A stretch of DNA of 64,000 nt, from the IMG/VR virus record IMGVR_UViG_3300033802_000281; one strand, 5' to 3'. The notes under the pieces are model-generated. The model was given only the letters and a program-made list of their open reading frames with translations. It ran no database searches and was not told the DNA's origin. Positions 20,167 through 36,474 of the stretch are shown here, piece by piece. Position 1 is the first letter of the stretch; each line of letters begins with the position of its first letter. The translations under genes were made by a program, and so were the position numbers. This DNA comes from a virus.

Positions 20167-20400
20167 TCAAAATACGTCCATTTCAGTAACAACATCGGTC
20201 CAGCCTATTCGAACTCGTCTAGCTATAAGGGGGTATGACCGTCCGTCCCAAGTGCTAATCTCCCCATCCACTATAGAGATCGTGCGGCTACTTAGAGTGT
20301 TTCTGACTTGCTCTAAGGCTTGTTCTTTACATGGTGACATGACCGGGAAATAAACGGGTATTACAAGCGTTCCAGCTACGTACAATTTTTGATCCATCAT
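20167..20400 (-). CDS. small protein, paralog of 31098-31328, putatively LexA-regulated
   Basis: MMDQKLYVAGTLVIPV...; SD AAGAGGAG on minus strand. Confidence 0.7.
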   Translation of the reverse strand: MMDQKLYVAGTLVIPVYFPVMSPCKEQALEQVRNTLSSRTISIVDGEISTWDGRSYPLIARRVRIGWTDVVTEMDVF

Positions 20401-20478
20401 GTAACAACTCCTCTTTGTTAGTGGAGAAACATGGAAGATTAGCGGTAAAGAAATGATAACATGGATTGATAAGAAAAT

Positions 20479-20492
20479 CAAACATATGTTCG
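20479..20492. promoter_or_regulatory. putative LexA (SOS/Cheo) box CAAACATATGTTCG
   Basis: one mismatch to Bacillus consensus CGAACRNRYGTTCG. Confidence 0.7.
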
Positions 20493-20588
20493 TATAGTGT
20501 AAAGGAATAAAAGATACAAAAAAATATATAAAATTGATTAAATATTGACTTTACATGTGTAAATTTGGTAGAATGGAGGAAAGAAAGG

Positions 20589-20816
20589 ATGATTACTTTG
20601 GCAGAAAAACGAAAACGAACTTATCTAATTTCAGAAGAAGAAATGACAGAACGCAAACGATGGAGAATGAAACGTCTGGAAAAGGAAATAGAACTTCGAG
20701 AGATAGCACCACACCTTCAATGCTCGTATAATCTCTTGAGTATGTATGAACGTGGGAAAGCACCAATGGTAGCAGAAAAAATTAAGCTATATCGAGAGTA
20801 CATTGAGAAACATTAA
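20589..20816 (+). CDS. Cro/XRE-like HTH protein
   Basis: IELREIAPHLQCSYNLLSMYERGK; divergent from 20167-20400. Confidence 0.75.
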   Translation: MITLAEKRKRTYLISEEEMTERKRWRMKRLEKEIELREIAPHLQCSYNLLSMYERGKAPMVAEKIKLYREYIEKH

Positions 20817-30217: not shown

Positions 30218-30420
30218 AATTGCCAAAAGAAAGTATAGAGAAGATAGTATTAATATTTAAGAAAGGAGGCTAAAACAATGTATAAGGTAGTTACCAGAGA
30301 GGTTTGGAAAGGTAAGATTTTTATCTCAGAATACTATTTTGAAAATAGGCAACAACTGGACAAATTTATTGAAATTTGTGAGAACCAAATTCAAATTGAA
30401 TTTGTTGAAGTAGCATAAAA

Positions 30421-30434
30421 AGAACATATGTTTC
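30421..30434. promoter_or_regulatory. putative LexA box AGAACATATGTTTC upstream of mazF
   Basis: GAAC-N4-GTTT core. Confidence 0.55.
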
Positions 30435-30501
30435 GGTTGCAAAATATGAAAATTATAGTATTATATTAATTAAGAATAAAAAAATAATTGAGGTGATATT
30501 A

Positions 30502-30882
30502 ATGGAGTACTTTCCGAAAAGAGGTGATATTTATCTTGTCGATTTGTCTGGTGCTGTAGGTAGCGAACAGGCAGGAATACGGCCATGTATTATTGTTAGT
30601 AACGATATTGGAAATCGATATTCACCGCTTGTTCATACAGTACCTATCACATCGAAAGTAAAAAAAGAAATGCCTTTTCATGTAAAAATAAATAATTTAA
30701 GAGAACCAAGTATCGCTCTATGTGAACAAGTAGGAAGAATTGATAAAATGCGTCTTATTGAATATATAGGAACTGTCGGAGAGCGAGAAATGCAAAAAAT
30801 TGATCGTGCTTTGATGGTTATTTATGGTCTTTTTAATTATATTCCTTCTGGCGAAGGCAAACGAGAAACTATATTTTGTTAA
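30502..30882 (+). CDS. mazF: MazF/PemK family endoribonuclease, no adjacent antitoxin recognised
   Basis: KRGDIYLVDL...GSEQAGIRP..IVSNDIGNRYSP...PITS...CEQ..IDK.RL, closely resembling B. subtilis NdoA/MazF; catalytic R and T positions kept. Confidence 0.9.
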   Translation: MEYFPKRGDIYLVDLSGAVGSEQAGIRPCIIVSNDIGNRYSPLVHTVPITSKVKKEMPFHVKINNLREPSIALCEQVGRIDKMRLIEYIGTVGEREMQKIDRALMVIYGLFNYIPSGEGKRETIFC

Positions 30883-31062
30883 ATGGAGGAGAATTATAAC
30901 GTGTTTTTGATTGTCGGAAAAGGAGTGTTTGATGTAAATAACGTAGCCAAATTTCTTGAAACTCGTGGAATAGTTGATGTATATACAGAAATACAAAAAA
31001 TTAAGAAACATGGGTTTATGCAATATGGTCGATATAAAATACTTGCATTTAGATAATGAATA

Positions 31063-31090
31063 GGCCGCCTAAATTAATAAGTAGGCGGCC
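31063..31090. terminator. bidirectional terminator between convergent genes
   Basis: GGCCGCCTA/TAGGCGGCC stem. Confidence 0.7.
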
Positions 31091-31097
31091 ATTATGT

Positions 31098-31328
31098 TTA
31101 TAATTCTGTTGCTTCATGCCAATCGATTATTAGCTTATCGCATTTTAAATAATGAATTTTTCCATTTGTGGTATATAAGTCTGCATCAAAAAACGAAAAA
31201 TTTTTAGTGTTTAGAACAGAATTAGCGTATTGAATTGCATCGACCTCGTTTTTAGTAAATACATTAAGTTGAATAGGAAGTTTGACTATACCATGAACAA
31301 TAAAATGTTTCATTTCAGACATACACAT
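31098..31328 (-). CDS. small protein, paralog of 20167-20400, putatively LexA-regulated
   Basis: KHFIVHGIVKLPI...; SD GGAGGGAG on minus strand. Confidence 0.7.
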   Translation of the reverse strand: MCMSEMKHFIVHGIVKLPIQLNVFTKNEVDAIQYANSVLNTKNFSFFDADLYTTNGKIHYLKCDKLIIDWHEATEL

Positions 31329-31385
31329 TCTCCCTCCGTTTCCTTACCACTGTGAAATTATTCTAACATGACAACTCTAAAAAAG

Positions 31386-31399
31386 CAAACATATGTTCG
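31386..31399. promoter_or_regulatory. putative LexA box CAAACATATGTTCG
   Basis: identical to the 20479 copy; one mismatch to consensus. Confidence 0.7.
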
Positions 31400-31421
31400 T
31401 ATAAAATCTTATAAAAAATAC

Positions 31422-31450
31422 TTGACACACTTTATAAATGAATATATAAT
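31422..31450 (+). promoter_or_regulatory. consensus sigma-A promoter
   Basis: TTGACA-N17-TATAAT exact. Confidence 0.85.
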
Positions 31451-31472
31451 TTTAATAACGGAGGTGCTTTAA

Positions 31473-32021
31473 TTGATAACTTACAAACCTTTGCGTGATT
31501 ATTTGAGGTTAAAAAATATATCTTACTATAGGTTAAAAAAGGATGCGGATGTATCACAGACTGTTGTAGGGAAAATTTTGAATGATGAATATATAAATCT
31601 TCAAAGTATAGCGAAAATTTGCTTATATTTAAAAATCCCTATTGAAAAAGCGGTACAGTTAAAGTTTCAAAATATAAAAACTTTCGACAATGAGTGTTTA
31701 CAAGAAGTAGATAACCTACGTGAAGAGATGAAGAAACTAAAACAGGAACTTTGGAAATATCAAAATATGAATAGAGAAAGAAGAAAGAGAGGAAAGACAT
31801 ATTATATTAAAGATTTAAAAAAATATAGGTTAGATAAAAATTTATCATTAAGTGATATAGCAAAGCGGTTTGACCTTACTACACAAATGATTTATATTTG
31901 GGAGACGTATAAATCGGGCGTTTCTGAAAAGTATATTTCTGATTTAAAGGATCTTTTAAACATCAAAGATGAAGACATTGTTGAATGGAAAATTGCAAAA
32001 GAAAATAATTTGACAACTTAA
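31473..32021 (+). CDS. tandem Cro/C1-type HTH regulator
   Basis: N-term ITYKPL..L....ISYY.L.....VS..VV.KI..DE.I.L.SI..IC..L; second HTH LSLSDIAKRFDLTTQMIYIWE. Confidence 0.8.
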   Translation: MITYKPLRDYLRLKNISYYRLKKDADVSQTVVGKILNDEYINLQSIAKICLYLKIPIEKAVQLKFQNIKTFDNECLQEVDNLREEMKKLKQELWKYQNMNRERRKRGKTYYIKDLKKYRLDKNLSLSDIAKRFDLTTQMIYIWETYKSGVSEKYISDLKDLLNIKDEDIVEWKIAKENNLTT

Positions 32022-34588: not shown

Positions 34589-35134
34589 TTGAATTGGAGT
34601 GTGATCTTTATAAAAACAATAGATTACTTAGCAAATGAAATGCACAAGGCAAATCCTAAATATTTAAGAGAAGAATACAAATATGGATTGGATATTATAT
34701 TTAACACGTTAGGTACAGTAGTTTTAGTCATTGCGATTTCGTTGATTTTAGGACTTGTGAAAGAAGCGGTTATTGTACTCATTAGTTTCGGTGTGATAAG
34801 ATTTTTTAGCGGTGGCAAACATCTACATACTTCAATTGCCTGTATGTTAACTACAGCATTACTTATTTATTTAATTATATTTATTCATTTAAACATATAT
34901 TTCTCAGATGCTATGATTTACACACTAAACATCATTTCTTTAATTATTTTTTCCATATTTGCACCTTCTAATATTGAACAAGCTATAAAAATTAAGATTG
35001 ATTATAAGATTATGCTAAAAATTATTTCTATTGCTTTTGTTTTAATAAGTGTTGTTATTCATTCAGAACTATTGACATTAACAATTTTTGTTCAAGCATT
35101 AACAACCATTGAAATAAGGAATGGTGTGCATTGA
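34589..35134 (+). CDS. agrB: accessory gene regulator B (AgrB) family peptide-processing membrane protein
   Basis: KYGLDII...FGVIRFFSGGKHLHTSIAC (R-x-x-S-G-G-x-H...C catalytic motif), FAPS; multiple TM helices. Confidence 0.9.
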   Translation: MNWSVIFIKTIDYLANEMHKANPKYLREEYKYGLDIIFNTLGTVVLVIAISLILGLVKEAVIVLISFGVIRFFSGGKHLHTSIACMLTTALLIYLIIFIHLNIYFSDAMIYTLNIISLIIFSIFAPSNIEQAIKIKIDYKIMLKIISIAFVLISVVIHSELLTLTIFVQALTTIEIRNGVH

Positions 35135-35829
35135 CCTATTTTTCGTTCATTTTATTTTCAATTCTAGAGCAATTTTCATTATTACTCTTTGGTTTCTCTA
35201 TTTTTAGAATTCGTCTTTCCTTTAATAATTATTTAAAAATGATACTGTTAACTATTATTACATCTACAGCATCAATATTTATGACGTATTATTCTTTTTA
35301 TGAGGGAGCAAGGCCCATTGTTATTTTTGTTATAACTTTGTTGCTGATCAATAAAGTAAAAAAGATTGGTTTGAAAACTTCGTTAATTATTGTTCCTATT
35401 GCTTATATTATATTTATTGCAGTACAGACACTATTGTTTATTATAATGAATAAATATGATTTAATCCCCTTAGACATAGTGCCTTTTAGTTATGAGGGTT
35501 ATCTGTTACAGTTTATTACTTCAATATTTTTTATTATATTATCTATTGTACTTCGCTATTTTTTAAAAGAAGGATTCATGTTTGATCCAGAAAGCAATGG
35601 TAATAAAAAATTGAGATATTCAAACAAATTATTTCTAATTGTACTAACGCTTGCATTTGTTATAATCTCCGGTCTTTATTATGAAGCTATGCATTCAAGT
35701 TTAGCATATATTGTTTATGCAATCTCTATTATATCACTTCTGTTTTCAATCGGTCTGTTTTATCTATCTGTTAAAAGAGATCAAGAGGAAGCAGAATTAT
35801 ATTTTTCGACACTAAAAAAAAGGAGGTGA
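35131..35829 (+). CDS. polytopic membrane protein resembling an AgrC sensor domain without the kinase
   Basis: about 7 hydrophobic segments; no H-box or HATPase; located between agrB and agrD. Confidence 0.7.
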   Translation: MTYFSFILFSILEQFSLLLFGFSIFRIRLSFNNYLKMILLTIITSTASIFMTYYSFYEGARPIVIFVITLLLINKVKKIGLKTSLIIVPIAYIIFIAVQTLLFIIMNKYDLIPLDIVPFSYEGYLLQFITSIFFIILSIVLRYFLKEGFMFDPESNGNKKLRYSNKLFLIVLTLAFVIISGLYYEAMHSSLAYIVYAISIISLLFSIGLFYLSVKRDQEEAELYFSTLKKRR

Positions 35830-35837
35830 CAAACAGC

Positions 35838-35960
35838 ATGAAGAAAGTTATTAAAGGTTTCTCTGCTATTGTTGGATTGCTTTCTGTAGTTTTTGCAACA
35901 ACAGCATCTACTTTTTGGGTTTACAAACCAGTTGCGCCAAAATCATTACTAAATAAGTGA
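35838..35960 (+). CDS. agrD: AgrD-type cyclic lactone autoinducer peptide precursor (40 aa)
   Basis: translated by hand: MKKVIKGFSAIVGLLSVVFATTASTFWVYKPVAPKSLLNK; SD AGGAGGTG; amphipathic leader, S-x4 ring, KPxxPKSL tail. Confidence 0.85.
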   Translation: MKKVIKGFSAIVGLLSVVFATTASTFWVYKPVAPKSLLNK

Positions 35961-36024
35961 TTGTCAAATAGGGGGAGTATGGTTAATACTCCCCATCAAA
36001 AACAACTCATTGGAGGGTACAAAC

Positions 36025-36474
36025 TTGAATGAAGACTTTATTCGTGTTCGTAACTCCAAAGGAGGATTTGAATTACAAAATATTCGTGATATATTATCGA
36101 TAGATTATCGTCCAGATTTCTCCATTGTTAGAACTAGAGACGGGGAATATGAATTACCTATATCTAAAAAAGGTTTGATCGAAACTATAATCGATCAATT
36201 TGATTTCATTCAGAGTGATAGAGATTTGTTTGTAAATATAAAATTAGTAAAAAAATATCACTCTACATTAAATTATGTTTTCTTTGATAACATTGACTCG
36301 GTTAAAGAGGTAAAGGAAAAGAATTTGCCTTATATTTTTCTTCATCCACGATATGTTAAGCATTTTAGATCGTACTTCGGGATCGAAAATGATTTAGCAT
36401 ATAAGAAAATACACAGAAAAAACAAAATTAGCTATATACGGAATGTGATTGATGAAATATTAAACGCCGACTAA
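36025..36474 (+). CDS. stand-alone LytTR DNA-binding domain protein
   Basis: FIQSDRDLFVNIKLVKKY LytTR pattern; no receiver domain; TTG start with SD GGAGGG. Confidence 0.7.
   Translation: MNEDFIRVRNSKGGFELQNIRDILSIDYRPDFSIVRTRDGEYELPISKKGLIETIIDQFDFIQSDRDLFVNIKLVKKYHSTLNYVFFDNIDSVKEVKEKNLPYIFLHPRYVKHFRSYFGIENDLAYKKIHRKNKISYIRNVIDEILNAD

Follow-up and report, generated by a model that had tools for sequence, protein, structure and literature searches.

A mazF–orf51 gene pair behind a LexA-type box, a probable SOS-repressed toxin-first module of SPbeta-like phages

The 64,000-nucleotide stretch of viral DNA analyzed here (the window; 32% G+C) comes from a metagenomic SPbeta-like phage and carries a mazF gene that is followed at once by a small gene for a basic protein, orf51, and preceded by a LexA-type box (Table 1). 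Box, promoter, mazF, orf51 and terminator would together make up a self-contained operon. The reading we favor, and consider probable, is that mazF and orf51 are an SOS-repressed toxin-first pair in which orf51 is a new MazF partner and probable inhibitor, and that the pair is a conserved accessory module of SPbeta-like phages. Both genes are conserved, they strictly co-occur, the box keeps its position, and a MazE-like gene was not found with them in the loci that we searched.

Table 1. Features of the mazF–orf51 region (window coordinates) and the mazF boxes of six related loci
Feature	Coordinates	Strand	Basis or remarks
Acidic 46-aa ORF upstream of mazF, closing the preceding operon, outside the module	30278–30418	+	conservation
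LexA-type (Cheo/SOS) box AGAACATATGTTTC	30421–30434		core GAAC-N4-GTTT
Sigma-A-type promoter of mazF–orf51, TTGCAA-16-TATTAT	30437–30464	+	consensus scan, 9/12 positions
mazF, 126-aa PemK/MazF endoribonuclease homologue	30502–30882	+	Pfam, PDB and PHROG matches
orf51, 51-aa basic protein, GTG start, RBS GGAGGAG	30901–31056	+	conservation, dN/dS, AF2
GC-rich hairpin, 9-bp stem, ends the mazF–orf51 operon	31063–31090		−17.8 kcal/mol, z −3.7
orf76, small convergent gene under the second box	31098–31328	-	53–58% identical in L006
Second LexA-type box CAAACATATGTTCG	31386–31399		overlaps the −35 (TTGCTT) of the orf76 promoter
mazF box, L006			AGAACATTTGTTCG
mazF box, L017			AGAACGTGTGTTCG
mazF box, L018			AGAACATTTGTTCC
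mazF box, L073			AGAACATACGTTCC
mazF box, L093			GGAACAAACGTTCC
mazF box, L027			AAACAAATGTTCG

Members of the orf51 family occur at seven distinct loci, namely the window, L006, L017, L018, L027, L073 and L093. At every one of them orf51 lies behind mazF, with a spacing of −8 to 45 nt (the genes overlap by 8 nt in L093) and a GGAG-type ribosome-binding site (RBS) of its own. The sequence-only reading had called this MazF an orphan, which is wrong given a conserved partner gene in 7/7 loci. A search of virus contigs and 401 Paenibacillaceae genomes with an orf51 profile led to L017 and L018; the latter and L019, a prophage of genome G110, are one and the same DNA. In the reverse search, the ORFs downstream of the best 80 MazF loci of the virus collection were scored with the orf51 profile; this recovered L017 and added L027 (E 6e-13), a Paenibacillus cremeus prophage contig, as well as L093 (E 2e-19) and L073 (E 1.4e-4). 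The searches from orf51 and from MazF thus converge on seven loci, and no orf51 homologue lacking mazF was found in protein, virus-contig or Paenibacillaceae genome searches. The MazFs of this subfamily are 44–74% identical, with those of L017 and L018 at 45–48%. L006, a metagenome contig, is syntenic with the window across the whole region, in the order 46-aa ORF, mazF, orf51, convergent small gene, HTH, yopQ-like, mrpR-like and agrB, and its proteins are 41% to 85% identical to those of the window. A small, presumably co-transcribed downstream gene that always co-occurs with mazF is the arrangement of a toxin-first pair, and mazF–orf51 appears from its sequence to be one.

The product of mazF matches PF02452 (E 4e-31; 107.8 bits against a cut-off of 23.1) over profile positions 1–108 of 109, and it matches phrog_1936, "MazF-like growth inhibitor" (E 4e-35). 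Its best PDB matches are EndoA-type proteins (4HKE, 7BXY and B. subtilis 4MDX/1NE8; E about 1e-24), of which the B. subtilis EndoA chains 4MDX/1NE8 align over ~108 residues at ~45% identity (E 6e-24). The phage protein keeps Arg27 (in GIRP) and Thr50 (in PITS), equivalent to Arg25 and Thr48 of EndoA, where EndoA-type proteins have GVRP and AITA. It also keeps the NDIGN and EQ motifs. The description of an NdoA-like MazF with its catalytic positions kept is therefore borne out. Across the seven-member subfamily the RNA-groove motifs are invariant, and the catalytic Arg is present in six proteins and the Thr/Ser in all seven. The gene is preceded by the RBS GAGGTG, and its dN/dS between the window and L006 is 0.16, with synonymous sites saturated. 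We infer from these features an intact EndoA-type, sequence-specific endoribonuclease with RNase activity and toxicity.

The phage MazF ends in a 14-aa C-terminal extension with Cys as its last residue. An extension past the EndoA fold (30840–30879 in the window) is common to the MazFs of the window, L006 and L027 and consists of G-L-F-N-Y-I-P, about eight variable residues and a Cys at or next to the C-terminus. We note that the MazF of L017 (L017:4597-4986) has a Lys and a one-residue insertion (GSNKP) at the site of the catalytic Arg, where the others have G-x-RP, together with a 12-aa N-terminal extension; the locus still has orf51 and a LexA-type box. Judged by these residues, the L017 protein may be an attenuated or inactive nuclease.

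The sequence-only reading had also looked to depletion of the cleavage motif in phage genes. With UACAU, the motif of BsMazF, as the motif, such depletion is absent: the 64-kb window holds 90 copies against 80–102 expected, and there is no consistent depletion in the repressor operon or in the other operons examined. No UACAU lies between mazF and orf51, and an unbiased scan for depleted 5-mers in the window yielded no candidate MazF motif. UACAU depletion as a mark of self-protection was accordingly dropped.

Translation of the orf51 frame from the ATG at 30883, directly next to the mazF stop, would give 57 aa; comparison with the related locus L006 identifies the conserved product as the 51-aa protein begun at the GTG at 30901, behind GGAGGAG. 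The L006 protein is 65–67% identical, and a dN/dS of 0.12 (dS saturated) indicates that orf51 is a real, constrained protein gene. Its product has a pI of 9.9 in the window and of 9.4–9.9 in the four copies computed, and its GGAGG-type RBS, as read from the sequences, is nearer to consensus than that of mazF consistently across loci. The orf51 profile, searched against 1.84 billion representative proteins, returned just two clusters, its own and one other, both of 51 aa. Neither a Pfam nor a PHROG family matched, profile searches of Pfam and the PDB were empty, and the ESM Atlas gave no usable match. The AF2 model (pLDDT 92.5) is compact and runs hairpin, two helices, hairpin. Foldseek against the PDB returned nothing for it at E 0.001 or better, and a wide VIA-align search gave a best Z of 4.4, with weak matches to small winged-helix-like DNA binders.

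MazE, AimX and YosL bind MazF through a Met-x3-Tyr-x-Glu-Met helix (PMC10769878). This M-x3-Y-x-E-M helix is absent from orf51 and from the upstream 46-aa ORF; an AimX/YosL-type helix was rejected as a feature of the window, where its one match is a chance one inside a 204-aa ORF and the flanking ORFs have none. The orf51 sequence has no similarity to MazE, AimX or YosL, and hhalign found no relation between the orf51 family and MazE (probability 0.06%). Nevertheless, orf51 is a new MazF partner, and a probable inhibitor, from an undescribed family. We propose inhibition because the co-occurrence with mazF is obligate, the toxin-first operon is tight, the RBS of orf51 is the stronger one and a catalytically selected nuclease needs buffering. 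This is a case from genetic logic, made without resemblance to known inhibitors. The MazF inhibitors known to occupy the RNA groove are acidic proteins. Against inhibition count the basic character of orf51, its unlikeness to MazE and its lack of the MazF-binding motif. The earlier suggestion of a novel small antitoxin thus gains from the constant co-occurrence and the purifying selection, and loses from a candidate protein that is basic and unlike MazE.

The core of the mazF box, GAACATATGTTT at 30422–30433, lies 69 nt before the ATG and 2–3 nt before the −35 element. A LexA-like box had been placed about 70 bp upstream of mazF, and its position proves to be conserved in 7/7 loci. The Bacillales LexA consensus is CGAAC-N4-GTTCG. 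The window box has 7/8 core positions of GAAC-N4-GTTC (its right half being GTTT) and three mismatches to the 14-mer CGAAC-N4-GTTCG. The core is complete (8/8) in L006, L017, L018, L073 and L093 and stands at 7/8 in L027; the strict form GAAC-N4-GTT[CT] occurs in six of the seven boxes, L027 having one mismatch. At all seven loci the box ends 1–3 nt before the TTG of the mazF −35, itself conserved in four loci, while the remaining leader has diverged. The 200 nt upstream of mazF contain no strict box in any of the 75 viral mazF loci that lack orf51. A single GAAC-N4-GTTY word in 64 kb is within chance, and it is the conserved position of the box that we regard as decisive for a candidate LexA site, one that on this pattern LexA would be predicted to bind. 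The 10-mer AACATATGTT has three copies in the window, against about 0.3 expected by our own estimate from base composition. Each copy (20479, 30421 and 31386) is found a short way before the start of a gene; two are in promoter regions between genes, and that of mazF is 3 nt past the stop of the upstream ORF.

A TTGAC(A/T) word is present 10–22 nt upstream of the box in L018 (4530–4545), L027, L073 and L093, but no matching −10 is suitably spaced from it. Such a word might belong to a second promoter, or another protein might use it as its operator.

The 46-aa ORF on the other side of mazF ends 84 nt before it, with the promoter in between. Its only counterpart, in L006, is 41% identical (dN/dS 0.26), and it matches no Pfam or PHROG family. 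It is absent before mazF in L017, L018, L027, L073 and L093, and because it is missing from these five more distant loci we do not count it in the module; as an antitoxin it was ruled out, not being conserved with mazF beyond L006. Small flanking ORFs of 46 and 51 aa had been noted before. They are present and neither is MazE-like, but the 51-aa one is the conserved partner of mazF. A phmmer --max search with a canonical MazE (from L016), run on all ORFs of 25 aa or more from the window, L006, L017 and L018, returned nothing below E 0.9, and an EndoAI-like ORF upstream of mazF was found at 0 of 80 viral loci. The canonical mazEF toxin–antitoxin (TA) arrangement was ruled out, as no MazE-type (RHH or AbrB) gene abuts mazF upstream. 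At the other end of the operon the hairpin at 31063–31090 is shared with the convergent orf76, and hairpins lie 3′ of orf51 in all three loci that were folded (window, L006 and L017). No terminator was found in the window between the preceding operon and mazF, so that read-through could express mazF independently of LexA, maybe in lytic growth.

In phi3T, host MazF blocks lytic development unless AimX or YosL neutralizes it (PMC10769878). For the phage MazF described here, the box is so placed that the gene should be silent in the lysogen and expressed on SOS induction. Host LexA, sitting on a box that abuts the −35, would keep the operon off in the lysogen; DNA damage would remove LexA, and MazF and orf51 would be made together with the products of the phage's other LexA-box genes. 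MazF would then cut mRNAs in the first phase of induction, and its effect might be host shut-off or a checkpoint on the commitment to lysis, which would give the module a part in the choice between lysis and lysogeny. Translated from its near-consensus RBS, orf51 would bind and restrain MazF and so be the antitoxin, from a new family, of a toxin-first type II system, guarding the cell from leaky expression and setting the duration of MazF activity. A bolder version, which we put forward as speculative and rather unlikely, is that this subgroup has internalized the MazF checkpoint for which phi3T relies on its host: phage MazF released by LexA on DNA damage would degrade transcripts and delay induction, orf51, as a MazF inhibitor of a new kind unlike MazE, would take the role of AimX/YosL and decide whether or not lysis follows, and control would be host-portable and arbitrium-independent.

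Several other explanations have to be set against the proposed toxin-first pair. The basic pI of orf51 and its weak winged-helix matches (Z ≤ 4.4) mean that it could be a regulator and not an inhibitor. On that account, which we think unlikely, orf51 would be a nucleic-acid-binding regulator, acting on its own operon or on some other promoter of the phage, or a cofactor that alters MazF targeting, and MazF would be restrained only by LexA and/or host MazE. The two-hairpin, two-helix model weakly matches only small DNA-binding winged-helix domains, and the chromosomal mazE–mazF of the lysogen host G110 could supply MazE. The fold matches are, however, in the noise range, and a partner that is adjacent in 7/7 loci, closely spaced and served by the stronger RBS is what characterizes toxin-first type II TA pairs such as higBA, hicAB and mqsRA. 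Because the downstream antitoxins of such systems bind DNA, regulator and inhibitor are not exclusive roles, and neutralization by host MazE is uncertain because the phage MazF is only ~45% identical to EndoA-type proteins. MazE also figures in the idea that the phage MazF is a decoy, not itself a nuclease, that titrates host MazE and so frees host MazF. For this there is a precedent in phi3T_93, which binds MazE, frees MazF and promotes lysogeny (PMC10769878), and one member of the subfamily, that of L017, has Lys for the catalytic Arg. Yet the Arg in 6/7 proteins, the Thr/Ser in 7/7 and the invariant RNA-groove motifs argue for selection on nuclease function, and a decoy would have no use for a partner gene of its own; we give this idea very little credence.

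The pair might instead serve the prophage as a defense or addiction module, acting in abortive infection or superinfection exclusion, with the SOS box providing stress coupling only and the phage's own choice between lysis and lysogeny left unaffected. MazF-like "growth inhibitor" genes are common moron-type cargo of temperate phages (phrog_1936), MazEF defends against phi3T when the phage antitoxins are missing, and mrpR lies anywhere between 2.6 and 25 kb away. A defense module, however, is expected to be on in the lysogen, whereas with a box abutting the −35 the operon should stay silent until DNA is damaged, at induction; moreover, the LexA-type box is specific to this SPbeta-like subfamily, a group in which MazF steers the life cycle. 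A defense role therefore seems doubtful to us. That the palindrome is an operator of a phage regulator, for example of the HTH proteins encoded beside the other two copies, and not a LexA site, is more doubtful still. Its three best copies (20479, 30421 and 31386) are all within the phage and two of them face HTH genes, but its conserved core coincides exactly with GAAC-N4-GTTC, the LexA consensus of Bacillales, and it is kept in phages with different hosts and strongly diverged repressor-region proteins. LexA control of SPbeta-like early genes has been experimentally demonstrated, and the MrpR/SroF operators are non-palindromic, 15–24 bp long and present in many copies (PMC10516654; 10.1101/2025.11.27.690993).

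Compared with B. subtilis MazEF (EndoAI/EndoA, ydcD-ydcE; 4ME7, 4MDX), the toxin we propose is of the same family, with the same Arg/Thr, NDIGN and EQ. The phage pair has no upstream RHH MazE; its partner lies downstream, is 51 aa long, basic and unrelated in sequence and predicted fold, and its promoter has a LexA-type box in place of TA autoregulation. With higBA, hicAB and mqsRA it shares the toxin-then-antitoxin order, the tight two-gene operon, the small downstream partner and possibly, in orf51, DNA binding. Their toxins are of the RelE, HicA and MqsR types and not MazF, and orf51 has no sequence relation or clear fold relation to HigA, HicB or MqsA. To our knowledge, mazF–orf51 would be the first toxin-first MazF pair if orf51 inhibits MazF. 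The chromosomal toxin genes of E. coli tisB/istR, symE/symR and dinB-yafNOP are under LexA, as we propose for the phage gene, although toxin classes and hosts differ; we know of none among them that is a phage-borne MazF. AimX and YosL of phi3T are likewise small proteins of an SPbeta-like phage that control MazF around lysis–lysogeny and SOS induction. In phi3T the host supplies the MazF and the inhibitors imitate MazE, whereas the window has the phage's own MazF and a partner without M-x3-Y-x-E-M; phi3T has arbitrium and the window an agr-like cassette. The premise of the sequence-only reading that SPbeta arbitrium acts through host MazE–MazF holds for phi3T (PMC10769878) and is weaker for SPbeta itself, whose lysogenization is independent of MazF according to a preprint (10.1101/2023.04.27.537455).

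The small antirepressor Sar of phi3T and SPbeta is under the control of LexA boxes, as found experimentally, and such boxes are reported near sar, beside SroE/SroF (YopQ/MrpR), in all SPbeta-like phages analyzed (bioRxiv 10.1101/2025.11.27.690993). The operon of Sar (YopT / phi3T_99 in the same preprint) and the mazF operon have in common that a LexA-type box directly precedes a small phage operon near SroE/SroF and would couple it to DNA damage; Sar is an acidic DNA-mimic antirepressor, whereas the cargo in the window is a MazF nuclease and the basic orf51. A phage MazF under a LexA-type box would join two threads, host MazF as the effector by which arbitrium steers lysis versus lysogeny in phi3T and small LexA-controlled proteins that trigger induction in SPbeta-like phages. 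In the literature we found no description of the 51-aa family, of a phage mazF under LexA control or of a MazF pair with the toxin gene first. If orf51 inhibits MazF, it represents a new antitoxin family without the MazE-type acidic helix; if it does not, an unneutralized nuclease switched on at induction would be a new form of RNA shut-off directed by a phage. In both cases the module distinguishes one subgroup among the large temperate Bacillales phages, and mazF–orf51 is a compact, testable system.

All six relatives with virus records have an MrpR_C_cat gene above the curated cut-off, and we therefore assign the module to SPbeta-like phages (records of 127–217 kb). An mrpR-like gene lies 2.6 kb downstream in both the window and L006, which for the window agrees with the earlier placement of mazF just upstream of the lysogeny module. 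Across loci the distance from the module to mrpR runs from 2.6 to about 25 kb (8–25 kb in the other relatives), and adjacency to lysogeny genes is particular to the lineage of the window. Phage-borne MazF genes are common, with more than 100 phage records annotated. The lysogen G110 has a canonical chromosomal mazE–mazF besides its prophage mazF–orf51; cross-talk with host MazE is possible and is required by no observation, and the earlier suggestions that the phage MazF depends on host MazE or titrates it gain no support from the loci studied. Directly after the mrpR-like gene the window encodes an AgrB homologue (PF04647, E 8e-24) and then a 232-aa protein without a family and with a weak LytTR match. 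This region (34589–36474) is an agr-like peptide-signaling cassette where SPbeta phages have arbitrium.

The second box belongs to orf76, whose minus-strand promoter, read by eye, has an extended −10, TGTTAGAAT. A 21-nt block at the 31386 box is invariant in L006, and the identical 14-mer CAAACATATGTTCG recurs at 20479–20492. We observe here a divergent unit in two copies (window 20167–20816 and 31098–32021), each with a minus-strand gene of ~76 aa, CAAACATATGTTCG overlapping the −35 of that gene (by eye) and a facing HTH gene. The two small proteins align almost without gaps at 23% identity (MAFFT), and BLASTP of orf76 against this putative paralogue gave no match. The AF2 model of orf76 (pLDDT 78) reached a best Z of 2.5, and YopT (PDB 2DLB) was absent from the Foldseek and VIA-align lists, so that homology of orf76 to YopT/Sar gained no structural support. 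As the model did not match YopT, the analogy to Sar is one of position, and by position orf76 and its paralogue are candidate SOS-induced, Sar-like antirepressors.

Psychrobacillus phage Perkons was considered and set aside: its MazF is 42–43% identical, but mazF is followed by a 56-aa ORF with no relation to orf51, and no LexA box was seen upstream. In this isolated SPbeta-like phage (L001 3266–3823) the 56-aa ORF lies 24 nt behind mazF, and it may represent a second, independent downstream-partner solution.

Two word counts in the window are also worth recording. CAGGT is depleted on the plus strand only (11 copies against 34 expected). CCWGG is nearly missing from the plus strand, with no CCAGG and one CCTGG against about 14 and 11 expected, a scarcity that points to a restriction or Dcm-type site of the host being avoided.
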